NCBI GenBank assembly: GCA_039980135.1
Contig: JBDXCV010000009.1
Coordinates: forward strand, 131,854-195,853
Source of the DNA: Alphaproteobacteria bacterium
GTDB taxonomy: Bacteria > Pseudomonadota > Alphaproteobacteria > UBA6615
Length of the DNA stretch: 64,000 bases
Direction: 5' to 3'
Every line of letters begins with the position of its first letter. The stretch's first letter is position 1. Shown here in pieces: positions 5,435-52,340 of the stretch. Position numbers and translations under genes: made by a program. A model generated the notes under the pieces. That model was given only the letters and a program-made list of their open reading frames with translations. It was not told the origin of the DNA and searched no databases.

Positions 5435-5525
5435 CGTCATGCCCGGACTTGATCCGGGCATCTCGCCTCACCGCATTGCCAATCGAATACCAACAGAGAT
5501 GCGCGGATCTAGTCCGCGCATGACG
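5435..5525. repeat. MITE/REP-like intergenic element (family A): two inverted hairpin units CGTCATGCCCGGACTTGATCCGGGCATCTC … GAGATGCGCGG…CCGCGCATGACG
   Basis: The arms are reverse complements of each other. Each arm is itself a hairpin (ATGCCCGG/CCGGGCAT). Lies between nrdB and the permease. Confidence 0.8.
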
Positions 5526-39631: not shown

Positions 39632-40042
39632 ATGATTACCAAGGGCATCAAGGAACTCTGCGCCGAAGCCGAGCAGGAGATCGAGACCATGACCGTCGAG
39701 CAGGTCATGGCGGTACAGGACGACGAAGAAGTCGTACTGGTCGATATCCGCGACATTCGCGAGCTGTGGCGCGACGGCACGATCCCCGGCGCCCAGCATA
39801 TGCCCCGCGGCATGCTCGAATTCTGGGTCGACCCGGAAAGCCCCTACCACCGGGAACTCTTCACCTCCGGCAAGAAGTTCATCTTCTACTGCGCGGGCGG
39901 GCTGCGCTCGGCGCTGGCGGCGAAAGCTGTGCACGATATGGGCCTCGCCCCGGTGGCGCACATGCGCGGCGGCTACGGCGCCTGGGTCAAGGCCGAGGGC
40001 CCGACCGAGGAAAAAGACGTCAAGATTCCCGAGAAGAAATAG
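39632..40042 (+). CDS. rhodanese-like sulfurtransferase domain protein
   Basis: Active-site loop CAGGLRS. 136 aa. Confidence 0.8.
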   Translation: MITKGIKELCAEAEQEIETMTVEQVMAVQDDEEVVLVDIRDIRELWRDGTIPGAQHMPRGMLEFWVDPESPYHRELFTSGKKFIFYCAGGLRSALAAKAVHDMGLAPVAHMRGGYGAWVKAEGPTEEKDVKIPEKK

Positions 40043-40048
40043 ACGGCG

Positions 40049-40675
40049 TCACGCGTTCGGCTTTTTCGCAACGACGAACGTCGCCTTGCCCCTTCCGGGT
40101 TGCCATCGGTGATCGATCTCGAAGCCGGCTTCCATGAGGCCGGTTACGAGCTCCTGCGGTGCAAACACCCTGACAATCGGCAACAAGCCGATGAATTCCC
40201 CGATCGGGCCGATAAACTTGAACCACTTCATGGTCTCGCCAAGGCACACGGTGCTGCTCACAAACACGCCCCCCGGCCGGAGCGTCCGGAAAACCCGGCG
40301 GATGACGTCGTCCCTGTTGCGCACAAGATGAAGAATGCTGTGCCCCATGACGACATCGAAGCTCTCTTCCGGCATATCCAGCGTATCGATCGCCGCAACG
40401 GCGAAATCGACATTCGAAACTTCGGCGGCGTCCGCCTTGGCCCGGGCGATCTCGATCATCTTCGGTGAAATATCGGTCGCCCGAATATGCTTTACCAAGG
40501 TCGCATGCACGAGCGCGGTCGATCCCGTGCCACAGCCGAATTCCAACACCTCCAAATCGGGGCGAAGATACGCCCGCGTGATCTCTAATTTTTTCTGATA
40601 GGAGGCTTCGTCACTGACCGGGCTTTTCGCGTATCTCGCGGCGTGCCGGTCCCAGAAGCGGCTGTCGTTTTTCAT
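40049..40675 (-). CDS. class I SAM-dependent methyltransferase
   Basis: Motif I (LEFGCGTGS) and the post-I acidic residue. Confidence 0.8.
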   Translation of the reverse strand: MKNDSRFWDRHAARYAKSPVSDEASYQKKLEITRAYLRPDLEVLEFGCGTGSTALVHATLVKHIRATDISPKMIEIARAKADAAEVSNVDFAVAAIDTLDMPEESFDVVMGHSILHLVRNRDDVIRRVFRTLRPGGVFVSSTVCLGETMKWFKFIGPIGEFIGLLPIVRVFAPQELVTGLMEAGFEIDHRWQPGRGKATFVVAKKPNA

Positions 40676-40772
40676 CGTCTGACCTTAAGGCAAGTGTTCG
40701 AGACGGCGGATGTACCCATACTTTGATCGAATATAAATTGCCTAATTTCGTTCTTTATATATACATATATGC

Positions 40773-41696
40773 ATGAATTGGCAGGCCATTTCGTTCGACT
40801 GGAACCAGGCACGCGCATTTCTCGCGACGGCAGAGGAAGGATCGTTGTCTGCGGCCGCGCGGGCGCTCGGACAGACCCAGCCGACCCTCAGCCGGCAGGT
40901 TGCCGCGCTAGAGAGAAATCTCGGTGTGACTCTGTTCGAGCGGGTCGGGCGTTCGCTTACAGCGACCCAATCGGGGCTGGAGTTGCTCGACCATGTACGC
41001 GCGATGGGTGCGGCGGCCAGCGACGTCTCACTCGCGGCAACCGGCCAGTCTGAGGCGATCGAGGGCGAGGTTTGTATTTCGGCGACCGACGTCATGTCGG
41101 CCTATCTCCTGCCGCCACTGCTTGCTCCCCTGCGGGAAGACGCACCGGGTATCCGGATCGAAGTGGTCGCCTCCAATGTGGTCAGCGATCTGCACCGGCG
41201 CGAGGCCGATATCGCCATCCGGCATGTTCGACCCGACCAACCCGACCTGATCGCAAAGCTGATAGGAGAAACAACCGGCCACCTCTATGCGTCACGCAAC
41301 TATCTTGACCGAGCCGGGCGTCCAGGCTCTCCCGAAGACCTGACGGATGCGGCGTTTATCGGTGTCGGGTCCACAAATCAGCTCATCGCGATCCTGAACG
41401 GAAGCGGCCTGGAGCTGAGCGAAGCGAATTTCGGCGTTTTCACGAGTAGCGGCGTTGTCGCCTGGGAGCTGGCGAAACAGGGTCTTGGCATCTGCATGAT
41501 GGCAAAGGATGTGGCGGCGCTTACGCCCGAAATGGAATGCGTGCTGCCGGAGCTTGGCCCGTTCCAGTTCCCGATTTGGCTGGTGACCCATCGCGAGTTG
41601 CACACCAGCAGGCGCATCCGGCTCGTATTTGACTATCTGGCCGACGCCTTCTCCCGCAACTCAGGATACACCTCACCCAATCGGGATCCGGGGTAA
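40773..41696 (+). CDS. LysR-family transcriptional regulator
   Basis: N-terminal wHTH (ARAFLATAEEGSLSAAARALGQTQPTLSRQVAALE) plus a LysR substrate-binding domain. Confidence 0.85.
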   Translation: MNWQAISFDWNQARAFLATAEEGSLSAAARALGQTQPTLSRQVAALERNLGVTLFERVGRSLTATQSGLELLDHVRAMGAAASDVSLAATGQSEAIEGEVCISATDVMSAYLLPPLLAPLREDAPGIRIEVVASNVVSDLHRREADIAIRHVRPDQPDLIAKLIGETTGHLYASRNYLDRAGRPGSPEDLTDAAFIGVGSTNQLIAILNGSGLELSEANFGVFTSSGVVAWELAKQGLGICMMAKDVAALTPEMECVLPELGPFQFPIWLVTHRELHTSRRIRLVFDYLADAFSRNSGYTSPNRDPG

Positions 41697-42397
41697 AACG
41701 CTTCCTCGAAGGACGGGCGGCCCTTGATACGCGCGAACCAGTCGGTGACGGCGGGGGCGTCGTCCCACATATCCGACAGGCTCAGTTCCTCCATTCGCTC
41801 GAACAATGGCGCCAAGCAGATATCGGCGATGGTGAATTGCGCCCCGATCAGCCACGGGCCCTCCCGGGTCAGCGCCTCTTCCATGCGCTCGACGGTGGCG
41901 CGCAGCTGGAGCATGGAATTTTCATACTCGTCGTCATTGAAGCCGGTTTGGTTCATGCGCATGAAGAAATCGCGGCGCAACGTGTTTGAATCCCGAAACG
42001 CTGCATACTCTTCCTCGCTCATCTCCTTGAACCGGTCGAGGAACACGTTCTGGAAAGACGGGACGCGCACCGCCATCGACGGCACCTCGTCGATGAAACG
42101 CAGCCAGGCCCGCATCTCGGCACGTTTCTTGGGATCGTCGGGCGACAGCCTCGGCACATCGGGCCAGACCTCGTCCAGATACTCGCACATCACCGTCGAC
42201 TCGATGATCGGCGTGCCGTCATGAACGAAGGCGGGGACCACGCCGTTGGGATTGATGGCCATATATTCTGGTGCCAGGTTCCCGCGCGTCGAGAAATCAA
42301 CCGGGCGGCTGACCCACTCGATTCCCTTCTCGGCCAGGCAGATACGCACCTTCTGGCTGCAGGTCGAATGAGCCGCGTGATAGAGCTCGAGAGCCAT
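41633..42397 (-). CDS. glutathione S-transferase family protein
   Basis: Thioredoxin-like N-domain and GST C-domain. Paralog of 45604–46419. Confidence 0.8.
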   Translation of the reverse strand: MALELYHAAHSTCSQKVRICLAEKGIEWVSRPVDFSTRGNLAPEYMAINPNGVVPAFVHDGTPIIESTVMCEYLDEVWPDVPRLSPDDPKKRAEMRAWLRFIDEVPSMAVRVPSFQNVFLDRFKEMSEEEYAAFRDSNTLRRDFFMRMNQTGFNDDEYENSMLQLRATVERMEEALTREGPWLIGAQFTIADICLAPLFERMEELSLSDMWDDAPAVTDWFARIKGRPSFEEAFYPGSRLGEVYPELREKASAR

Positions 42398-42408
42398 AGT
42401 AACTGCCC

Positions 42409-43446
42409 CTATTCGGCGGCTTTGGCCGCCGCGTCATCGTCGCCGTCAGCAAAGGCCGGGATGATCTCCTTCGAAAAGGCCCGCAGCCCCTCGATGCCAG
42501 AGCCGCCATCGGAAAAGAGCATGTACTTCACGCCCGCCTGCCGGAAACGTTCGACCTTCTCCGCGATCTCGTCGATCGTGCCGAAAAATGCCGCCTCCGC
42601 CGTCGTCTGGACGCTGTCGTCATAGGACATGATCGACGCCTTGTTGCTGCCATCCGGTTTCTGGGCGAGATTGTCGACCCGGCGTCGGGCCGCAATACGC
42701 CGCTCGATTGCGGCATCGCGGTCCGCCGCGTCCTTGGCGACATAGAGCCCGCGCGCCACGCCGACATTGCTGGCATTGAAGGTGCCACCCCCGGCCTCGA
42801 TCGCCGTACGATAGGTCTCGACCCGCTCGATTGTCGCGTCGACCGAGGCAAACTGGTCGAGCAAGAGATTGTAACCGCGTTCCGCCACCTTCGTGATCGA
42901 CGCCGGGCTGCCCGCGCCCATCCAGAACGGCGGGTGGGGCTGCTGCGCCGTCGGCGGCTCGACAATGACATCCTCGAACGACCAGAAATCACCTTCATAG
43001 GTCCAGGGATCATCCTCGGTGAAGGACCTGGTCAGAATCTTGAGAGATTCCTCGAACCGGCCCTCGGCATCCTCCATCGGAATCCGGAAACCCTTGAACT
43101 CGTTGAAGCGGTAGCCCTTGCCGACGCCGAAGTCGAAACGCCCGCCGGACAGGAGGTCCAGGGTCGCGACCTGTTCCGCCAGAAGCACCGGGTTATGCCA
43201 GGGCAGCACCAATACAGCGGTCCCGAGGCGGATCGTCGACGTGCGCGCCGCCAAATAGGTCAGCAGGTTGACCGTTGCCGACACCTGACCGAAGCCCGTG
43301 AAATGGTGCTCCACGGCAAAGGTGCTGTGGAAGCCGAGTTGTTCGGCCTCGACATTGAAATCGAGCCAGTCGTTATAGCCCTTGGCACTGTCGACGTCAG
43401 GCCCGCCGCGTTTTGCCTGGGCGCTTCCGAAAAGGCCGAACTTCAT
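42409..43446 (-). CDS. LLM-class (luciferase-like) flavin-dependent oxidoreductase
   Basis: MKFGLF… TIM-barrel LLM N-terminus. 345 aa. Confidence 0.8.
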   Translation of the reverse strand: MKFGLFGSAQAKRGGPDVDSAKGYNDWLDFNVEAEQLGFHSTFAVEHHFTGFGQVSATVNLLTYLAARTSTIRLGTAVLVLPWHNPVLLAEQVATLDLLSGGRFDFGVGKGYRFNEFKGFRIPMEDAEGRFEESLKILTRSFTEDDPWTYEGDFWSFEDVIVEPPTAQQPHPPFWMGAGSPASITKVAERGYNLLLDQFASVDATIERVETYRTAIEAGGGTFNASNVGVARGLYVAKDAADRDAAIERRIAARRRVDNLAQKPDGSNKASIMSYDDSVQTTAEAAFFGTIDEIAEKVERFRQAGVKYMLFSDGGSGIEGLRAFSKEIIPAFADGDDDAAAKAAE

Positions 43447-43602
43447 GCGATTTCTCCATTAAACCAGATGCAAAATATCATGCCCGAACGCATACTGGAC
43501 TGGCGACAGACAATCGTCTCGACATGTGAGAAGGATGAAATGTCGCCGGCCAATTCATCCGCATTCACGCGATGATAAATAAACTCTCGGGGGAAAAGCA
43601 GA

Positions 43603-44559
43603 ATGTTGAATGTTGCATTGATCGGGCTTGGCTGGTGGGGACAGAACCACATCCGAGCACATGAGAATAGCGAGAAGATTCGTATCGATACGGTCGTGGA
43701 CCTGGACCCGGATCTCTCAAAGAAAACCGCCGATACGATCGGCGCGCGAACCGCACCGAGCTACGAAGCCGTTCTGGCCGACGACGCGATCGACGCGGTG
43801 ATTTTGGTTACGCCGCACTCCCTGCACACCGACCAGATTGTCGCCGGCGCCGCCGCAGGCAAGCACATCTTTACAGAAAAGCCTTTCGCCCTGTCGAAGT
43901 CCGAAGCCGAGCGCGCCGTCGCGGCCGCGGAGGCTGCCGGCATCATGCTCGGGCTTGGCCACAATCAGCGCTACGGCGGCCCGCAGACCGTGATCAAGGA
44001 CATGATCGACGCCGGCGAGCTGGGCGAGATCATGCACATGGAGGGGAACACGTCCCACGACAGCCTCTCCGGTGCGCACGCATGGCGCCACAATGTCGAC
44101 GAAGCTCCCGGCGGCGGCCTCTGGCACATGGGCAGCCATTTTCTCGACCTGTTCCAGCACTATGTCGGCCCGATCGAGGGGGTCTATGCCCAGGCTCTGG
44201 ACGTGGTCATTCCCCGGGACACGGCATCGGCGCTGCTGACCTTCGAATGCGGCGCATCCGCCTATATCGGCAATGTCATGGTCACCAGCGACAATCGCAT
44301 GGGCAATGTCTTCGGCACCAAGGGTTGGGCGAAAGTCGCCAGCCCGGCGAGCCTGCTGGTCTCCATGCGCGGGGAAGAGCCCAAAACCATCGAACTGGAT
44401 CCCGTCAATCCGGTCCGCGCCAACATGGAAGGGTTCGCCGACGCCATCGCCGGCATCGCCCCATACCGGTTCACGAACGATCAGATGATCCACGATGTCG
44501 CCACGCTCGACGCGATGGCGCTGTCGATCAAATCCGGAAAGCGTGAACCGGTCGCCTGA
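43603..44559 (+). CDS. Gfo/Idh/MocA-family oxidoreductase
   Basis: N-terminal Rossmann motif (ALIGLGWWGQNH) and an EKP motif. Confidence 0.8.
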   Translation: MLNVALIGLGWWGQNHIRAHENSEKIRIDTVVDLDPDLSKKTADTIGARTAPSYEAVLADDAIDAVILVTPHSLHTDQIVAGAAAGKHIFTEKPFALSKSEAERAVAAAEAAGIMLGLGHNQRYGGPQTVIKDMIDAGELGEIMHMEGNTSHDSLSGAHAWRHNVDEAPGGGLWHMGSHFLDLFQHYVGPIEGVYAQALDVVIPRDTASALLTFECGASAYIGNVMVTSDNRMGNVFGTKGWAKVASPASLLVSMRGEEPKTIELDPVNPVRANMEGFADAIAGIAPYRFTNDQMIHDVATLDAMALSIKSGKREPVA

Positions 44560-44599
44560 GGGTAGTACGGTTCAAGGCGATAAACGCGGGGAAGAAAGC

Positions 44600-45592
44600 A
44601 TGATCAATGCAGCAATCGTGGGGCTCGGCTGGTGGGGCCAGAACCATGTCACGGCCACGAAGGGTTCGGACAAGATCCGGTTCACCCGCGCGGTCGATCT
44701 GGCGCCGGAAAACGTCCAGGGCTTCTGCGACGAGCATGAACTGACCCTGACGGCCGACTATGCGGATGCGCTGAACGACCGCGACATCGACGCCGTTGTG
44801 CTGGTCACGCCCCACAGCCAGCATACCGACCAGATTGTCGCCGGGGCCGCAGCCGGCAAGCATGTGCTGACCGAAAAGCCGTTTGCGCTCGAGAAGGCCG
44901 AAGGTCTGCGCGCCGCAAACGCCATGAAGGATGCCGGCCTGACCCTGGGGATCGGCCACAATTACCGCTACGGCCCCGCCGTGCAGGAAATCAAGCGGAT
45001 CATCGAGTCCGGTGATCTGGGCGACATCCACCATATCGAGGCCAATCTCAGCCATCAGGGCCAGATCGGCATCGAAGGCTGGCGGCGCGCGAACAAGGAG
45101 GCACCGACGGGCGGCATCGTGCATTTCGGCGCGCATATGATCGATATCATGTGCTGGTATGGCGGCCCGATGCGCGAGGTCTATGGCCAGCTCGCGACCC
45201 ACATCCTCGACAACGATGTGGGCTCCGTTCTGGTGAAGTTCGAATCCGGCATCACCGGTTATCTGGCCAACCTGATGACGACGCCCGCCACCATGCATCT
45301 CCATGTGATGGGATCAAAGGGCTGGGCCCGGGCCAACGGCTGGATGGACACGACGAAAGTCACGACATGCTTCGGCGCCGGCACGCCGGAGGAATCAGGC
45401 GGCTTCGCGAACGAGATCGAGTTACCCGAGCGCAGCATCTACACCCAGATCAGGCTCAACGACGAAAACTTCGCCGCCGCGTGCGTGGGCGAAGAAACCT
45501 ATCTGTTCACGCCCGACGAGATGGCCCACACCGCCGCGATCCACGAGGCGATCGCCAAGTCGGCCGCCAGCGGGCAGCCAACCCAGGTCTGA
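44600..45592 (+). CDS. Gfo/Idh/MocA-family oxidoreductase, tandem paralog
   Basis: AIVGLGWWGQNH. Collinear with 43603–44559. ATG at 44600. The ORF track extends upstream to 44495. Confidence 0.8.
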   Translation: MINAAIVGLGWWGQNHVTATKGSDKIRFTRAVDLAPENVQGFCDEHELTLTADYADALNDRDIDAVVLVTPHSQHTDQIVAGAAAGKHVLTEKPFALEKAEGLRAANAMKDAGLTLGIGHNYRYGPAVQEIKRIIESGDLGDIHHIEANLSHQGQIGIEGWRRANKEAPTGGIVHFGAHMIDIMCWYGGPMREVYGQLATHILDNDVGSVLVKFESGITGYLANLMTTPATMHLHVMGSKGWARANGWMDTTKVTTCFGAGTPEESGGFANEIELPERSIYTQIRLNDENFAAACVGEETYLFTPDEMAHTAAIHEAIAKSAASGQPTQV

Positions 45593-45603
45593 GAGTAGAC
45601 ACC

Positions 45604-46419
45604 ATGATCACGCTCTATCAGTTCGGCAACTCGGTCTGCGCCCAGAAGGTACGGATCACCCTTTTCGAGAAAGGCCTCGAATGGGAGCCGCGGGAGGTCA
45701 ATCTGTTCAAGAGCGAGCAGTATTCGCCGGCGTATCTGAAGCTGAACCCGAAGGGCGTCGTGCCGACCCTGATCCATGAGAGCCGCCCGATCTGCGAATC
45801 CACCCTGATCTGTGAATATCTCGACGAGGTCTACCCGGACCCCAAGCTCACGCCCGACGACCCCTATGATCGCAGCCAGATGCGCATCTGGAGCAAGATG
45901 GTCGATGAGGGCCTGCACGAAGGCACGACCGAGATCAGCTTCTCCGCCATGTTCCGCGAGAAAATGAAATCCCTTTCGCCCGAAGAACGCGAAAAGCGAC
46001 TGCACAATATCGGCGATCCCCGGCGGCGCATGCGTTTTACATCGACCTACGAGGACGGGGTGGAATCCCCGTTCGTCCTGCATGCCATCGCGGCCTACGA
46101 GAAGATGTTCAAGACCCTGGATGAAACGCTCGGCGACGGCCGCGACTGGATCTTCGGCGATCGCTACACCCTGGCCGATATCAACATCATGCCCTACGCC
46201 GCGCGGATGGTTTACCTCGGCCTGTTCGACGTCTGGAACGATGACCGGCCGCGGGTCCAGGCCTGGTGGGAGCGCGCCAGCGCGCTGCCGAGTTTCAGGG
46301 ACGGGATACGCGACCGGCTTACGGCCCAGGAACTCTCCGACATGGAGACCTACGGGCCGACCATCCGGGATCGCCTGCGCGAACTTCGTGCCGAGCATGT
46401 CGCGCAGCTGCTGCACTGA
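45604..46419 (+). CDS. glutathione S-transferase family protein, paralog
   Basis: MITLYQFGNSVCAQKVRITLFEKGLEW is clearly homologous to the N-terminus of the 41633–42397 protein. ATG at 45604. Confidence 0.8.
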   Translation: MITLYQFGNSVCAQKVRITLFEKGLEWEPREVNLFKSEQYSPAYLKLNPKGVVPTLIHESRPICESTLICEYLDEVYPDPKLTPDDPYDRSQMRIWSKMVDEGLHEGTTEISFSAMFREKMKSLSPEEREKRLHNIGDPRRRMRFTSTYEDGVESPFVLHAIAAYEKMFKTLDETLGDGRDWIFGDRYTLADINIMPYAARMVYLGLFDVWNDDRPRVQAWWERASALPSFRDGIRDRLTAQELSDMETYGPTIRDRLRELRAEHVAQLLH

Positions 46420-46424
46420 CCGCT

Positions 46425-46494
46425 TCGGGGGGTTTGAATCCCGCCCCTGCATTCCTGGTTAAATGCCGGTAGGGGCGGGTCTTTGACCCGCCCG
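46425..46494. terminator. pair of family B GC-rich hairpins downstream of GST gene
   Basis: CGGGGGGTTTGAATCCCGCCCC and GGGGCGGGTCTTTGACCCGCCCG. No U-tract, so a role as a rho-independent terminator is tentative. Confidence 0.45.
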
Positions 46495-46555
46495 TGGATC
46501 CGGACAACCAACGAACGTTCTCCGAAAACCTTGCCGGTTTTGCATTTTCTTATTT

Positions 46556-46569
46556 GTAGCTATAGCTAC
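46556..46569. promoter_or_regulatory. perfect 14-bp palindrome GTAGCTATAGCTAC upstream of MCO–ZIP–mntR operon; candidate DtxR/MntR-type operator
   Basis: Exact palindrome. Half-sites resemble the TAGC-containing DtxR/IdeR-type boxes. Lies about 25 bp upstream of a putative -35 TTGACC (46593–46598) and -10 TTAACT (46616–46621). Confidence 0.45.
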
Positions 46570-46667
46570 ATTTTGTTGTGTGTCTTGAATAGTTGACCAC
46601 AGGCATATAACGCGCTTAACTCCGCCGCACACGCCGGAAGCTGGCACCCTGGTCAGGTTGGACGACA

Positions 46668-47750
46668 ATGATTTCGCGTATTTTGCAATCGGTGACGAAC
46701 CGGCGCGCCTTTCTGGGCGCAAGTGCCGCGTTGCCCCTGGCGCCGATCCTGGCAGGGTCCGGAATCGACACCGCGCAGGCCCAGTCACCGGGCTCTGTCC
46801 ATGCCGGCAGCCATCTGGACGGCATGACGACCGTCGGCAATGTCGATCACGTGCGCAATGGGTTCGACCCCCACGAGATTCTGAACGACTGGGATTTGGG
46901 CACGGTGACGACCGATGCCAACGGGCGGCGTGTGCGCGAATACGAGATCACCGCGGTCGATATCGAGATCGAGATCGCGCCCGGCATCTTCTTTCCCGCC
47001 TGGGCCTATAATGGCCGGGTGCCCGGCCCGACCATCCGCGCGGTCGAAGGCGAGTGGCTGCGGATCCACTTCACGAACGCGGGCAGTCACACCCATTCGA
47101 TCCATTTCCACGGCATCCACGCCGCCAGCATGGACGGGATCGCGGGCGCAGGCCTCGTGGGACCGGGCGAAAGCTTCACCTACGAGATGCCCGCCGAGCC
47201 CTTCGGCTGCCACCTGTATCACTGCCACGCGACGCCGTTGAAACGGCATGTCCACAAGGGCCTGTACGGCGCCTTCATCGTCGATCCCGATCCGGCGCGG
47301 CACCCGGAACATACCGATGTGGCGCGCGCGCGCCTGCTCGGGACGCCCGAGAACGACACCTGGCAGGAATTCGTCATGGTGATGAACGGTTTCGACACGA
47401 ATTTCGACGACGAGAACGAGATCTACGCGGCCAACACGGTCGCCCATGAGTATATGAAACGCCCGATCCAGGTGGACCGGGACCGCCCGATCCGGATTTA
47501 TCTGGTGAACATCACCGAGTTCGACCCCATCAACTCGTTCCATCTGCACGGAAATTTCTTCGACTATTACGACCATGGCACGACGCTGACGCCGACCCTC
47601 AGAACGGTTGATACGATCATGCAGTGCCAGGCCCAGCGCGGGATTCTCGAGATGTCCTTCGCGAACCACGAACCCGGCCGCTACATGTTCCACGCCCATC
47701 AGAGCGAGTTCGCCGAACTCGGCTGGATGAGTGTGTTCGAGGTGACGTGA
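46668..47750 (+). CDS. Tat-exported two-domain multicopper oxidase
   Basis: Twin-arginine signal (RRAFLGASAA). Cupredoxin HxH motifs (HTHSIHFHG, HCH, HLHG). About 360 aa. Confidence 0.75.
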   Translation: MISRILQSVTNRRAFLGASAALPLAPILAGSGIDTAQAQSPGSVHAGSHLDGMTTVGNVDHVRNGFDPHEILNDWDLGTVTTDANGRRVREYEITAVDIEIEIAPGIFFPAWAYNGRVPGPTIRAVEGEWLRIHFTNAGSHTHSIHFHGIHAASMDGIAGAGLVGPGESFTYEMPAEPFGCHLYHCHATPLKRHVHKGLYGAFIVDPDPARHPEHTDVARARLLGTPENDTWQEFVMVMNGFDTNFDDENEIYAANTVAHEYMKRPIQVDRDRPIRIYLVNITEFDPINSFHLHGNFFDYYDHGTTLTPTLRTVDTIMQCQAQRGILEMSFANHEPGRYMFHAHQSEFAELGWMSVFEVT

Positions 47751-48940
47751 TGATCCCCGCCTCCGCAGACCATAGCGTTGCAACGAAACGCGGCCTGGCC
47801 ATCGGCTTCCCGCTGTTTCTGCTGGCGCTGGTCGCGCTGGCCGTGACCCTGTTCGACCCGCTGGCGCGGTTTGGCACCGGCCTGCCGCCCGATGAAGGCC
47901 TCGCCATCGAGCGCGGCACGACCGAACCGAACGGGATCGAAGTCTGGGTCCGGGGCGACGGTCGCGACGATGTTTCCATCGCCCAGGTACAGGTCGACGG
48001 GGCCTACTGGAACTTCAAGCAGACCCCCGATGGCCCGCTCGGCCGGTTCGAGGGCGCGCTGATCGAAATTCCCTACCCCTGGGTCGCGGGCGACGCCCAT
48101 CACCTGACCTTCGTGACCAGCACCGGCACCACCTTCGGCTACTCGATCGACGTGGCACGCGACACGACGCCGTTCAGTCTCGGCGCGTTGTTCGACCTGG
48201 CGCTGCTCGGCCTGTTTGTCGGGGTCGTTCCCATCGCACTCGGGCTGGCCACGATCCCGATTCTGCGCCGCATGGGGACCGAAGGCATGGTCTTCGCCAT
48301 GGCGCTGACTGTCGGGCTTCTCGCCTTCCTGCTTGTGGACACGCTGGCCGAAGGGCTCGAACTCGCCGCGGAGGCGGCCGGCGCCTACCAGACCGACGTG
48401 ATCGTCTGGGTCGTCGCTGCCCTCACATTCGCGGCGCTGATGGCGCTCAGCCGGATCGGCGGACGCAAAGGCGGCACGGGCGGCATTGCACTGGCGACCT
48501 GGATGGCGCTCGGCATCGGGCTACATAATTTCGGCGAGGGCCTGTCGATCGGCACCGCGCTCATCCTGGGCAACGCGGCGCTGGGTAGTCTGTTGATCGT
48601 CGGGTTTACCGTCCACAACCTGACCGAGGGCATCGCCATCGCTGCGCCGGTCACCCGCAAGACACCCGGGCTCTGGATGTTCGTCGGCTGGACCGCGCTG
48701 GCCGGCCTTCCTGCCGTTGCCGGCGCGTGGATCGGTGCCTTCGCCTTCCTGCCCCACTGGGGTGCGATCTTCTTTGGAATCGCCGCGGGTGCCATTCTGC
48801 AGGTCATGGTCGAGGTCATCCGCTTCATCCTCGCGCTCGGGCGCGAGAGTACCGACAGCCTGTCCGGCGGGACCGCGTTTGCCGGTTTCGGCACAGGCGT
48901 GCTCGCCATGTACGCCACCGCCTTCCTCGTGCAGGTCTAG
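47750..48940 (+). CDS. ZIP-family divalent metal transporter with N-terminal extra-membrane domain
   Basis: C-terminal ZIP core (LHNFGEGLSIG…HNLTEGIAIA). N-terminal TM anchor plus a soluble domain of roughly 170 aa. ATGA overlap with the stop of the MCO gene. Confidence 0.7.
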   Translation: MIPASADHSVATKRGLAIGFPLFLLALVALAVTLFDPLARFGTGLPPDEGLAIERGTTEPNGIEVWVRGDGRDDVSIAQVQVDGAYWNFKQTPDGPLGRFEGALIEIPYPWVAGDAHHLTFVTSTGTTFGYSIDVARDTTPFSLGALFDLALLGLFVGVVPIALGLATIPILRRMGTEGMVFAMALTVGLLAFLLVDTLAEGLELAAEAAGAYQTDVIVWVVAALTFAALMALSRIGGRKGGTGGIALATWMALGIGLHNFGEGLSIGTALILGNAALGSLLIVGFTVHNLTEGIAIAAPVTRKTPGLWMFVGWTALAGLPAVAGAWIGAFAFLPHWGAIFFGIAAGAILQVMVEVIRFILALGRESTDSLSGGTAFAGFGTGVLAMYATAFLVQV

Positions 48941-48952
48941 AGGGCCGATCCG

Positions 48953-49432
48953 ATGGCCGAGCGCGGCAAGACCCTGACCACGGACGACGCGGCATCGGAC
49001 AGCGCCGACGAACTGATGGATGCGGACCGCCAGGCCGCCCAGTTCGAGCGGGTCCGCAACGCCCAGCAGACCGAGAAGGCCGAAGACTATGTCGAGATGA
49101 TCGACGATCTGATCAACGCCTATGGCGAGGCGCGGGTCACCGATCTGGCGCAGCGGTTCGGTGTGTCCCATGCCACGGTCAACAAGATCGTCAAGCGGCT
49201 CCAGCGCGACGGGCTGGTCACGTCACGCCCGTACCGGTCCATCTTCCTGACCGAGCAAGGCTCAGCGCTCGCCGACGCCTCGCGCAAACGCCACCAGATC
49301 GTGTTGAATTTCCTGCGCGCGATCGGGGTCAGCGCGCGCAACGCGGAGCTCGACGCCGAGGGCATCGAGCATTATGTCAGCGCCGAGACCCTGGCCGCCT
49401 TCGCGAAGATCACGTCCGACAGGGACGGGTGA
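48953..49432 (+). CDS. mntR: DtxR/MntR-family metal-dependent transcriptional repressor
   Basis: HTH (RVTDLAQRFGVSHATVNKIVKRLQRDGLV) plus the dimerisation/metal-binding region of DtxR-type repressors. Confidence 0.8.
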   Translation: MAERGKTLTTDDAASDSADELMDADRQAAQFERVRNAQQTEKAEDYVEMIDDLINAYGEARVTDLAQRFGVSHATVNKIVKRLQRDGLVTSRPYRSIFLTEQGSALADASRKRHQIVLNFLRAIGVSARNAELDAEGIEHYVSAETLAAFAKITSDRDG

Positions 49433-49444
49433 ACTCTCTCTAGT

Positions 49445-49530
49445 CGTCATGCCCGGACTTGATCCGGGCATCTCAGCTCGATTTCAGCCGCGGGGCGCAC
49501 GAGATACGCGGGTCAAGCCCGCGTATGACG
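49445..49530. repeat. family A element
   Basis: CGTCATGCCCGGACTTGATCCGGGCATCTCAG … CGAGATACGCGGGTCAAGCCCGCGTATGACG. Confidence 0.85.
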
Positions 49531-49550
49531 AACCGGGATAGACCGCCCGT

Positions 49551-50537
49551 CTAGTCCCCCAACAAGAACGGCAGCGCCTTCGCCAGCGTATCCGCCGGGT
49601 TTTCCTCGACATAGAAATGCCCGCCATCGACCAGCGCGACTTTGGCGTCGGGCAGGTATTCCTCCAGCCCCTCGTAGTTTTCGACCGGCATCGGCGGCTC
49701 GTCGGAGCCCTGCAGGATCAGCATCGGTGCGGTCCAGGCCGGGATCAATCGGGTCAGCCGGTCGATCCAGTCCTTGCGGAAGGTCGAGGACTGAAAATAC
49801 CGCTCCACCGCGACGCCGGTACCCGGGCGCGAGAATTCCTGCATGGCGCGGATCACGTCCGGCTTGGGGATCGGGTGCTTGCACAAACGGCCGAAGCCCC
49901 ATTCGAAGACCTTGACCGGGTCCTGGAGAATGCCGCGGGTCTCGAGGTTCGTAAACATCAACTCCTGGGGTGCAAGGTCCGGGTGGAAATGAATCAGATG
50001 CTGGGATCCGCGCACCCAGCGAAGGACCCGGTCGGCATGTTTGGCGGCGATGAAATCCGCCTGAACGGTGCCCCGGTCGTGACTGAACAGGTGAAACTTC
50101 TCCACCCCGATCGTGTCGAGCAGGGAGACCACCTGTTCCGCGACACCCTCATGGCGGTAGTCGCCGCGGCGATTGTCGGACTGGCCGTAGCCCTTGAGAT
50201 CGATGGCGATGCAGCGGAAATGCTTCGCCAGTTCCGGCAGGATCGGCCGCCACATGCACCAGGATTGCGGAATACCGTGCATCAGCAACAGCACCGGGCC
50301 TTTACCCGCCTCGACGAAATGCCAGCGGATGGTCTCGCTCTCGCCCGGGGCCTCCACAAACCTATGCTTGACGTCCAGCCCGCCGATATCCTCGGTCTCG
50401 CCGTCCGTATTCTCGGGCGCAGGCGGCAGGCCTTCGGCCGCGATCTCCTTCAGGGTCGCGACCATCTCCGGGTGGTTATGCCCGGTGCGCATCAGTTCGA
50501 GCGCCGCTTCACTCACCGGTCGGTATTCGAGGTCCAT
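49551..50537 (-). CDS. alpha/beta hydrolase (epoxide hydrolase-like)
   Basis: HGIPQSW and the nucleophile elbow FSHDRG. Start at ATG 50537 (MDLEYRP). The ORF track's N-terminal MPGSSPGMT… is a translation of the flanking repeat element. Confidence 0.75.
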   Translation of the reverse strand: MDLEYRPVSEAALELMRTGHNHPEMVATLKEIAAEGLPPAPENTDGETEDIGGLDVKHRFVEAPGESETIRWHFVEAGKGPVLLLMHGIPQSWCMWRPILPELAKHFRCIAIDLKGYGQSDNRRGDYRHEGVAEQVVSLLDTIGVEKFHLFSHDRGTVQADFIAAKHADRVLRWVRGSQHLIHFHPDLAPQELMFTNLETRGILQDPVKVFEWGFGRLCKHPIPKPDVIRAMQEFSRPGTGVAVERYFQSSTFRKDWIDRLTRLIPAWTAPMLILQGSDEPPMPVENYEGLEEYLPDAKVALVDGGHFYVEENPADTLAKALPFLLGD

Positions 50538-50576
50538 GATGTCCTTCTCCCCTATTCTGCAACCACTAAAACCAAT

Positions 50577-50662
50577 CGTCATGCCCGGACTTGATCCGGG
50601 CATCTCAGTTCAATTCCAGCCTCATGGCGCACGAGATACGCGGGTCAAGCCCGCGTATGACG
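50577..50662. repeat. family A element, near-identical direct copy of 49445–49530
   Basis: Same orientation and about 90% identity to the 49445 copy. Together the two copies flank the alpha/beta hydrolase gene. Confidence 0.85.
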
Positions 50663-50674
50663 GCTTGTTCTGGG

Positions 50675-51658
50675 TCAAACCGTCAGCAACGTCGAACCCG
50701 TCGTCTTGCCGTCCCACACGTCGGTCTGCGCCTGGGCGGCGTCTTGGAGCGCGTAGGTCTGGCCAATCACGGGCTTGATGTCGCCCGCCGCGATGGCCGC
50801 AAACAGGGTCGCGGCGCTGTCGTCGAGTTCCTGACGGTTCAGCTGATAGAAGCGCATCGACGCCTTGGTGAAGAACAGCGAGCCCTTCACGTTGAGCTCC
50901 ACCGCATCGATCGGCGGCACGGGGCCCGACGCGTTGCCGAAATTGACCATGTAACCCCGCGGCCGCAGCGCATCGATCGAGCCCTGATAGTGATCCTTGC
51001 CGACGGAATCATAGACCACGTGGACCCCTTCACCGCCGGTGACCTCGCGGGCGACCTCGGTGAAGTTCTCGGTCTTGTAGTTCACCGCATGCTTGGCGCC
51101 GTTCTCCAGGATCGTCTCCTTCTTGGCATCGGAGCCCACGGTGCCGATCACGGTCACGCCTTTCGAGGCCAGCCACTGGCACAGGAACAGGCCCACGCCG
51201 CCCGCCGCCGCATGCACCAGCGCGGTCTCACCCGCTTGTGCAGGATAGGTCCGGTGAATCAGATACTCCGCCGTCATGCCTTTCAAAAGGCTCGCGGCGG
51301 CATCTTCGTCGGACACGTTATCCGGCAGGGCGACGACCTGCGCCGCATCGATCAGCCGGGCCTCGGCGTAGGAACCAGGGTAGGTCGAGGCATAGACCAC
51401 CCGCTGGCCGACCGAGAAATCATCGACCCCCGCGCCGACCGCCTCGATGACGGCGGCGGCCTCCGTCCCCAGCACCGAGGGAAGTTCCGGCAGCACCGGG
51501 TAGAGGCCCTTGCGGACCATGATGTCGAGAAAGTTGAAGCCGATCACCGTGTGGCGCAGGCGCAGCTGGCCCGGGCCGGGATCGCCCACCTCGATGTCCT
51601 CCCATTTCAGGACATCGGCCTCGCCGAACTCATGAATTCGAATTGCTTTCACCATCAC
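50675..51658 (-). CDS. qor: NADPH:quinone oxidoreductase (zinc-type ADH superfamily)
   Basis: MDR fold with AAAGGVG NADPH motif. 327 aa. Confidence 0.85.
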   Translation of the reverse strand: MMVKAIRIHEFGEADVLKWEDIEVGDPGPGQLRLRHTVIGFNFLDIMVRKGLYPVLPELPSVLGTEAAAVIEAVGAGVDDFSVGQRVVYASTYPGSYAEARLIDAAQVVALPDNVSDEDAAASLLKGMTAEYLIHRTYPAQAGETALVHAAAGGVGLFLCQWLASKGVTVIGTVGSDAKKETILENGAKHAVNYKTENFTEVAREVTGGEGVHVVYDSVGKDHYQGSIDALRPRGYMVNFGNASGPVPPIDAVELNVKGSLFFTKASMRFYQLNRQELDDSAATLFAAIAAGDIKPVIGQTYALQDAAQAQTDVWDGKTTGSTLLTV

Positions 51659-51752
51659 GGGGTTTCCTCAAACAAATTGACGTCGGTTGATTATGTGCTG
51701 TTCGCCGATACGGCGGCGCAGAGTTATCTAGTCCTTCACGCCCGGAAGGACA

Positions 51753-52340
51753 TTAGCCGGTTTCGATTTCTTCCATGCCCTCGGGCATCTCGAAATTTTC
51801 GAGCCGGACCAGCTTGCCGTCCTCCACGCCGAGACCGGTATGCTTGGCGCGCGCGAGCACTTCGGGATGCCAGGTGACAGGCCCGCCGCCATCCTGCTGG
51901 CCGACCATGGCGAGGATCACGACCTCTTCGTCGTTCGGGTTGCGGAAGCCCCGCATCACACCCTCCGGGACCGATATCGTGTCCCAGGGTTCCAGGGTCA
52001 GCTCTTCCTCGCCGTCATCGCCCCAATAGACGATCAGGCTGCCGTTGAGCGGCATGAACACTTCGGCCGTCTCGTGGCTGTGGAGCGCGGCCCCGGTGTC
52101 GGGATCGCAGGTGATGAAGGCGACCGTGAAGCCGTGGTCCTCGGCGATCGGCGGGCTCATGCGCGGATCCTCGACCACGCCGCGGCCGATCACCTTGAGG
52201 TTCTTCTTGCGATGTTCGGGCAGCAGGGAATCGACGAACGCGACGTTGAACTTCTTGAGGTCCTTGAAACGCGCCACGCGGGTCGCTTCCATCTCCTCAG
52301 CTGAAACCTTGGGCGATACATGTTCGGCGGCATTGCGCAT
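51753..52340 (-). CDS. cupin-domain protein
   Basis: Single cupin barrel with His-containing motifs (ALHSHETAEVF…). Confidence 0.6.
   Translation of the reverse strand: MRNAAEHVSPKVSAEEMEATRVARFKDLKKFNVAFVDSLLPEHRKKNLKVIGRGVVEDPRMSPPIAEDHGFTVAFITCDPDTGAALHSHETAEVFMPLNGSLIVYWGDDGEEELTLEPWDTISVPEGVMRGFRNPNDEEVVILAMVGQQDGGGPVTWHPEVLARAKHTGLGVEDGKLVRLENFEMPEGMEEIETG

Follow-up and report, generated by a model that had tools for sequence, protein, structure and literature searches.

How is the gene of a secreted copper enzyme controlled when it is read together with a metal transporter and a manganese sensor, and what could such a combination be for? The question is raised by one locus in a 64,000-nucleotide stretch of alphaproteobacterial DNA (contig JBDXCV010000009.1; 'the window' below means this whole stretch), in which a multicopper oxidase (MCO) gene, a ZIP-family transporter gene and mntR follow a short perfect palindrome that a first-pass annotation had taken for the operator of an autoregulated, metal-responsive operon. 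We compared the window with 80 genome loci encoding relatives of the transporter (cited by number, such as L001), 73 of which were usable for counting motif cores upstream of the MCO gene. The best overall explanation, to which we give a rough probability of 0.65, is that the palindrome is an MntR operator in front of a manganese-repressed uptake module. Within it, the sequence evidence makes it highly probable that the operon's own MntR, the product of its last gene, uses the palindrome as its operator, while repression and a role in uptake are reasonably likely and the exact substrate of the oxidase can be proposed with low confidence. The features on which the argument draws are as follows.

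46440–46479, + strand: probable terminator of the upstream glutathione S-transferase (GST) gene, a strong hairpin followed by UCUUUG (−26.5 kcal/mol, z = −2.9)
46553–46572, strand not assigned: predicted MntR operator, the 20-bp site TTTGTAGCTATAGCTACATT with the core TAGC-N4-GCTA and a perfect palindrome at 46555–46570 (from motif, conservation and a published box)
46593–46621, + strand: candidate promoter, TTGACC (46593–46598), 17 nt and TTAACT (46616–46621), kept in L001 and L002
46668–47750, + strand: Tat-exported two-domain MCO, 360 amino acids (from Pfam, PDB matches and the invariant His/Cys pattern)
47750–48940, + strand: ZIP-fold metal transporter, 396 amino acids (from an AlphaFold model, Foldseek and alignments)
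48953–49432, + strand: mntR, a DtxR-family manganese sensor of 159 amino acids without an SH3-like domain (NCBIfam NF008273)
49444–49530, + strand: 87-nt two-hairpin REP-like repeat directly 3′ of mntR (−46.5 kcal/mol, z = −4.5)

The start of the ZIP gene overlaps the stop of the MCO gene by 1 nt (TGATG) and mntR begins 12 bases after the ZIP gene; given this spacing and the hairpin repeat behind mntR, the three genes are read as one operon. The unit ends in a DtxR/MntR gene, as the first-pass annotation had stated, and its proposal of a single autoregulated operon is supported by the order of the parts, with mntR last and a predicted MntR box upstream. Hairpins probably mark both limits, the one at 46440–46479 behind the GST gene, which ends at 46419, and the REP-like repeat, which would also stop transcription, behind mntR. 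Between the GST hairpin and the MCO gene, the stretch 46530–46620, which contains the palindrome, is AT-rich, with 38% G+C versus 62% in the whole window. The nearest genome locus to the window belongs to a Rhodospirillaceae metagenome-assembled genome (MAG; L001), and a protein identical to the transporter is recorded from an alphaproteobacterial MAG.

The palindrome as a predicted MntR operator

The 14-mer GTAGCTATAGCTAC, read at 46556–46569, is an exact palindrome as first reported, and it widens to the perfect 16-mer TGTAGCTATAGCTACA at 46555–46570. The window holds 10 perfect 14-bp palindromes (8.4 ± 3.1 expected from Markov-1 simulations) and 4 of 16 bp (2.2 expected from the same simulations), and the exact 14-mer with up to three mismatches allowed occurs once against 0.32 expected. 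Because perfect 14-mers of this kind are about as frequent in the window as chance predicts, palindromy alone carries no weight, and their number would suit a palindrome that arose by chance, or one that merely forms a weak intrinsic terminator for the GST gene, with no regulatory role, as would a terminator scan that lists TGTAGCTATAGCTACA followed by TTTTGTTGTG. The palindrome hairpin, however, is worth just −6.8 kcal/mol, and one of −26.5 kcal/mol already stands behind the GST gene; moreover, the motif is kept before orthologous operons with unrelated upstream genes and covaries with the MntR helix. We consider a palindrome devoid of regulatory function very improbable.

The published enterobacterial MntR box is AACATAGCnnnnGCTATGTT, and a similar 20-bp palindrome lies upstream of alphaproteobacterial mntH (Rodionov et al., PMC1698941). 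The window site TTTGTAGCTATAGCTACATT has the full TAGC-N4-GCTA core, exact at 46557–46568 and spaced as in the published box; it agrees with AACATAGCnnnnGCTATGTT at 10 of 16 specified positions, and where its flank deviates, the change goes with one in the recognition helix of MntR. Across the comparison set, the exact core occurs 48 times in the 38.5 kb of MCO-upstream DNA (in 33 of the 73 usable loci) and twice in the remaining 580 kb, an approximately 360-fold enrichment upstream of orthologous MCO genes over the rest of the same loci. All 31 loci with an adjacent mntR contain at least one box that keeps at least 7 of the 8 core bases, and loci in which mntR is divergent frequently contain two boxes.

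The regulator itself fits this motif class. MntR proteins combine PF01325 and PF02742 in about 140–160 amino acids and have no SH3/FeoA-like domain. Both domains, the winged helix (PF01325) and the dimerisation/metal-binding domain (PF02742), were found in the 159 residues of the window protein, which scores 205 bits against the MntR equivalog NF008273 (cut-off 153) and matches Escherichia coli MntR (2H09) with an E value of 3.4e-36. The binuclear manganese ligands of Bacillus subtilis MntR, which we take to be D8, E11, H77, E99, E102 and H103, align through 1ON1 with D45, E48, H114, E136, E139 and H140 of the window protein, all conserved. Its recognition helix is GVSHATVNKIVKRL, and when loci with an adjacent mntR are compared, the base preceding TAGC tracks the start of this helix.

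Helix GVSHATV, half-site TGTAGC: the window, L001, L002, L004, L012 and L037 (holders include Erythrobacter and Caulobacteraceae)
Helix GVAQPTVAKML, half-site ATAGC: Rhizobiales
Helix GVTAPTVAKTL, half-site TTAGC: Rhodobacterales

The E. coli MntR helix, GVSQPTVAKML, differs from the Rhizobiales helix by S for A alone. This covariation between protein and DNA is the strongest non-experimental evidence that each MntR would read its neighbouring box, and together with motif identity and conservation it supports the initial assignment of the palindrome as a predicted MntR operator. The helix variants also offer a clean natural series for how changes in a recognition helix retune operator specificity.

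Several loci carry more than one box. In L046, L057, L066, L067, L026, L037 and L056, a second, weaker copy is centred 19–20 bp from the centre of the first, and a third is found 38 bp further on in L049, L051 and L052, upstream of the oxidase gene. Such serial predicted boxes suggest cooperative tandem binding of MntR.

The oxidase, the transporter and their pairing

The first gene of the operon encodes a secreted two-domain MCO, in line with its first annotation: the protein has the Tat motif NRRAFLG, a signal peptide of about residues 1–38 and the Pfam domains Cu-oxidase_3 and Cu-oxidase_2. Residues 36–359 match PDB entries 7RAB/7RAC (568 bits, E = 6.6e-170), with clear kinship also to 3GDC, and members of the family across phyla are 65–76% identical to the window protein. 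Four HxH pairs, the motifs expected to serve the trinuclear copper cluster, are invariant (H146/H148, H185/H187, H292/H294 and H342/H344), as are C186, H141 and H194, and the type-1 copper motif HCH at 185–187 lies with H141 and H194 inside domain 1. A type C two-domain MCO is defined by type-1 copper in the N-terminal domain (PMC13151041); with HCH in its N-terminal cupredoxin domain, the window MCO is therefore of type C by that definition. The 7RAB match implies a homotrimer that would hold its trinuclear clusters at the subunit interfaces. A literature search found no paper on 7RAB and no published function for 7RAB or 3GDC, and the module, if our explanation is true, would give a physiological role to this structurally solved but functionally unassigned family. 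The nearest database relative of 7RAB is a metagenome sequence, 98% identical, that sits in L088.

The second gene had been described as an N-terminally extended ZIP, and the alignments and the model indeed place about 140 extra residues, a transmembrane (TM) helix plus a beta-sandwich, before the transporter core. In the AlphaFold model (pLDDT 88.4), the N-terminal TM helix (residues 9–35) and the beta-sandwich (residues 51–133, encoded at 47900–48148 and predicted to be periplasmic) are followed by eight TM helices. Among PDB structures, the top matches of the model are all BbZIP (5TSA; Foldseek E = 7.5e-6, target-normalised TM-score 0.67), and HNxxEG motifs stand at 259–264 in TM4 and at 289–294 in TM5, with H259, N260, E263, H289, N290 and E293 invariant. 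The protein scores 18.2 bits against Pfam Zip (PF02535; cut-off 35.1) and 40.6 bits against NCBIfam ZupT (cut-off 252), which marks it as a member of a divergent ZIP subfamily and not a ZupT equivalog; some of its homologues do carry precomputed PF02535 matches.

The beta-sandwich, searched alone against Pfam, matched no family, the only hit being DUF6802 at an E value of 0.11, and its structural neighbours in Foldseek are generic Ig-like folds (FlaF, FlaG, DsbD-N and CopC). Its conserved polar residues include the invariant H117 and H118, which is conserved in at least 90% of members. A search of 1.84 billion representative proteins returned 475 clusters; among the 150 clusters listed, nearly every one has the domain close to the N-terminus, and the longest proteins reach about 490 residues at most, with many being shorter metagenome fragments. 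Judging from these listed clusters, the domain appears to be confined to this transporter family.

An MCO homologue (44–90% identity) lies immediately upstream of the ZIP gene in 79 of the 80 loci; in the eightieth the contig breaks off 192 bases short of the ZIP match, which makes the pairing uncheckable there. Starting instead from oxidase homologues, two look-ups each led to an adjacent transporter gene. The hosts range over Alpha- and Gammaproteobacteria, Deinococcota, Cyanobacteria, Chloroflexota, Gemmatimonadota, Bacteroidetes-type and Balneolota-type lineages, Paenibacillus, Cytobacillus, Rhodococcus, Arthrobacter and haloarchaea, and the module is present in at least 590 species genomes, Firmicutes and Actinomycetota included. 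A plasmid collection contains 152 records with a gene related to that of the transporter, and 74 of these records are conjugative. With 79 of 80 loci, many phyla and these plasmid records, the idea that the pairing is unusual does not hold; MCO and ZIP make up a conserved module whose two genes travel together. A literature search for an MCO with ZIP and MntR, a two-domain MCO with manganese, or an MCO under manganese limitation returned no description of the module, and database records annotate its genes merely generically. The operator would thus be a further MntR box of known type, while the MCO–ZIP–MntR module itself is apparently undescribed in the literature found.

What follows the transporter gene differs between lineages (L084, 6053–6472; L087, 6084–6509; L083, 7170–7490; L086, 6075–6251): Rhodococcus and Gloeocapsa have a gene for a small Rieske 2Fe-2S protein there, Haloferax one for a plastocyanin/azurin-like protein and Cytobacillus one for TatA. 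The Rieske and cupredoxin neighbours possibly hint at a protein electron partner for the oxidase.

Manganese regulons and the sign of regulation

Beyond the MntR box, other lineages link the module to manganese in other ways. A Deinococcus plasmid carries genes for a DtxR-family regulator and an Nramp transporter, both divergent from MCO–ZIP; L088 (4327–9859), which encodes the 7RAB-like protein, has a single operon DtxR(FeoA)–MCO–ZIP–ZnuA–ABC–ABC-3, whose last genes make up an MntABC-type importer; and the gene order on Haloferax pHME322 is MCO–ZIP–plastocyanin–DtxR. In Halomonas sp. KAO (L079, 5599–6328), an MntP-like gene convergent to MCO–ZIP has a yybP-ykoY manganese riboswitch in front of it (46.7 bits; gathering score 45). 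Loci of Deinococcota, Chloroflexota and Gemmatimonadota have TTAG-N6-CTAA boxes, and 11 alphaproteobacterial loci without an adjacent mntR carry a Fur-type 7-1-7 palindrome, found 11 times upstream of the oxidase gene versus once elsewhere.

TGCAAAT-N-ATTTGCA, upstream of the oxidase gene: L015, L016, L024, L031, L034, L035, L050, L064, L069, L074 and L076

This palindrome is probably the rhizobial Mur box, which the published text gives simply as a 19-bp Fur-like palindrome. A Mur box in place of an MntR box would mean a switch of regulator on the same module. Because three kinds of manganese-responsive control converge on it (MntR, DtxR-type and probably Mur), we place the module in manganese regulons. 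The divergent arrangement may bear on an older puzzle: the mntR of Mesorhizobium sp. BNC1 was called 'enigmatic', its only predicted site being upstream of mntR itself (PMC1698941), and a divergent MCO–ZIP operon would explain such an orphan mntR.

The sign of regulation depends on where the box lies relative to the promoter. The first-pass annotation had put the palindrome just upstream of −35 and −10 elements; such elements, TTGACC-N17-TTAACT, are kept in the two closest relatives, whereas a sigma-70 consensus scan called no promoter, so that the promoter proposal is drawn solely from the three-way conservation among the window, L001 and L002. In these three, the sole conserved block besides the box is TTGACC-N17-TTAACT/TTTAAT, downstream of it, and the box lies ~20 bp upstream of the conserved −35, its centre at about −66 of the candidate promoter. 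In other lineages the box falls on the promoter itself: on the spacer, −10 or +1 of a TTGACx promoter (Rhodobacterales, Gemmatimonadota, L042 and the two unclassified alphaproteobacteria L026 and L032), on a TTGCTx-N17-TACATC promoter in Erythrobacter and Caulobacteraceae, on a TTGACT-N17-TAATAT promoter of the Deinococcus plasmid and, as TTAG-N6-CTAA in L088, on the promoter TTGACA-N17-TAATAT. On these predicted promoters, a box over the spacer, −10 or +1 is repressor geometry. In Rhizobiales, the conserved −35, TTGCTA, is the right half of the box itself. With the promoter block downstream of the box in the window clade, repression there is a conclusion from orthology and cannot be read from the sequence.

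The same geometry gives room to the opposite sign, in which MntR would bind at about −66 at high manganese and turn the operon on with positive autoregulation, the oxidase converting periplasmic Mn(II) into insoluble Mn(III/IV) and the ZIP passing manganese down its gradient, for detoxification or oxidation. In the window, as in L001 and L002, the box indeed precedes the conserved TTGACC-N17-TTAACT, and the module occurs in plasmid metal-resistance contexts. The predicted axial type-1 position, 199, is Leu in most homologues (Met in one), and an axial Leu tends to raise the type-1 potential. Some JGI pipelines name homologues 'manganese oxidase', but these labels are automatic. B. subtilis MntR is reported to activate efflux genes (Huang 2017, cited in PMC9240420). 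At least five other lineages, by contrast, have the box over −10 or +1, in repressor geometry, and the module is co-located, and probably co-regulated, with manganese importers (Nramp and MntABC-type). We know of no ZIP that exports, which also counts against activation for detoxification, and we regard this alternative as improbable.

Under the manganese-repressed uptake module that we favour, dimers of MntR loaded with Mn(II) would bind TGTAGC-N4-GCTACA and render transcription of MCO–ZIP–mntR both manganese-responsive and autoregulated, so that the module would act as a manganese-acquisition system, off at manganese sufficiency and on at scarcity. Under scarcity the ZIP core would import Mn(II), while the oxidase, probably docked on the family-specific beta-sandwich, would condition the metal pool at the mouth of the transporter. 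It would most likely oxidise competing Fe(II) or Cu(I), preventing their co-import, or else act on the transported metal itself. A precedent for the transport step is TmpA, a published manganese-importing protein of the ZIP family (PMC8844249).

Several points weigh against this explanation. The specificity of a ZIP is not readable from sequence, and this one is below both the Pfam Zip and the ZupT cut-offs; an oxidase has no obvious chemical role in Mn(II) uptake; the box at about −66, upstream of the only conserved −35/−10 pair, is in an activator-like position as far as sequence tells; and about a dozen loci, cyanobacteria and Halomonas among them, show none of the manganese-regulator motifs searched for. 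Plasmid copies of the module, furthermore, are embedded in islands of copper and heavy-metal resistance genes, a setting no less compatible with a function in resistance; the neighbours there include P-type ATPases, PCu(A)C, SCO, DsbA/E, L,D-transpeptidases, ArsR, MerR and CopD. Clustering of neighbouring open reading frames, noisy in GC-rich DNA and taken as a rough guide, indicates SCO, PCu(A)C, DUF411, MerR and DsbA-like genes.

From this setting comes the idea that the pair is a copper-handling or resistance module like CopA with CopC–CopD, the MCO being a cuprous oxidase, the ZIP with its CopC-like beta-sandwich moving copper and MntR control reflecting cross-talk between copper stress and manganese demand. 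Neighbours including copper P-type ATPases, PCu(A)C, SCO, DUF411, CopZ, MerR and CopD speak for it, although such copper chaperones could merely metallate the MCO. The transporter family is common on plasmids, which also suits this idea, given the 74 conjugative records among 152. The beta-sandwich has weak Foldseek matches to CopC (6TPB and 6NFR, probability 0.94–0.97), but these are generically Ig-like, and the better scores go to FlaF, FlaG and DsbD-N. Recurring regulators and motifs are of the manganese type (MntR, DtxR and a Mur-like box), whereas copper sensors do not recur, and a copper module seems to us still somewhat less plausible than activation by MntR.

A bolder form of the manganese-uptake explanation makes the MCO and the beta-sandwich ZIP a physical oxidase–permease complex, a widespread prokaryotic counterpart of Fet3p–Ftr1p built on a ZIP scaffold for manganese. 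Oxidase chemistry at the mouth of the transporter would then either make it selective, with Fe(II) and Cu(I) being removed there, or couple mechanistically to manganese transport, and the module would be a mobile one, placed in the manganese regulons of three unrelated regulator types. We offer such a complex tentatively, as an unlikely but not negligible prospect.

A riboswitch or other leader RNA was considered for the window and rejected: Rfam at E ≤ 1 over 40000–52000 gave no RNA family, and the leader at 46573–46672 has no significant fold (z = 0.2). Further afield in the window, a second 87-nt copy of the REP-like repeat lies at 50576–50662, and the two copies flank an alpha/beta-hydrolase gene (49551–50603, minus strand), whose longest open reading frame starts inside the repeat, so that its true start is probably further in. 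The first hairpin of the repeat, GTCATGCCCGGACTTGATCCGGGCATC, occurs 9 times in the window versus 0 expected, with further copies at 5436, 5498, 7343, 8731, 10675, 53408 and 55170. Upstream of the GST gene are two neighbouring paralogous oxidoreductase-like genes (43603–44559 and ~44600–45592) with similar N-termini (IGLGWWGQNH), the first of which is common to L001 and L002.

Comparison with known systems

In its regulation the locus resembles the MntR systems of enterobacteria and alphaproteobacteria, in which the box stands upstream of mntH or sitABCD (PMC1698941): a DtxR-family manganese sensor without SH3 domain, a palindromic TAGC-N4-GCTA operator and a regulator gene beside its target are common to both. 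It differs in that the target is an MCO–ZIP pair and not an Nramp or ABC importer, the flank is TGTAGC instead of CATAGC, the helix shows a matching change (SHATVNK versus SQPTVAK), and the window clade has its box upstream of −35.

The transporter shares the 8-TM ZIP fold and the metal-site motifs of TM4 and TM5 with BbZIP, E. coli ZupT and Streptococcus sanguinis TmpA (PMC8844249), to which it adds a TM helix and a roughly 85-residue beta-sandwich without a Pfam family. Its partner is like the type C MCOs 7RAB/7RAC and the Arthrobacter-type 3GDC in its four HxH motifs and in the HCH of the N-terminal domain, while the names given to these entries by their depositors mention neither a ZIP partner nor manganese regulation. 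The MCO-type Mn(II) oxidases MnxG, MofA, MoxA and McoA have larger architectures of three or more domains, whereas the window MCO has two. The alphaproteobacterial manganese-oxidising MCOs to which the first-pass annotation had appealed when it suggested that Mn(II) or Fe(II) oxidation may be coupled to uptake (for example, MoxA) presumably belong to this different, larger class, which makes that analogy a lead and not evidence.

CopA/PcoA with CopC–CopD are copper resistance proteins, and the likeness lies in a Tat-exported MCO accompanied by an inner-membrane importer with a periplasmic, metal-binding Ig-like domain, in plasmid carriage and in location within metal islands. The module differs in the family of its membrane protein, in an MCO with no Met-rich region and in its manganese-sensor regulators. 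Uptake of iron by an oxidase and a permease is known from yeast Fet3p–Ftr1p and from bacterial EfeUOB and FtrABCD. By analogy with these, the module would likewise pair a secreted copper oxidase obligatorily with a permease and be switched on at metal limitation; its permease, however, is ZIP-fold and not Ftr1/EfeU-like, its oxidase a two-domain MCO of the trimeric type, and its predicted regulators manganese sensors. It can thus be seen, by analogy, as a variant of oxidase-plus-permease metal uptake under an operator of the known MntR-box kind. Known bacterial manganese import is by Nramp, ABC and plain ZIP systems, to which the module, if our explanation is true, would add a further and oddly redox-equipped one.

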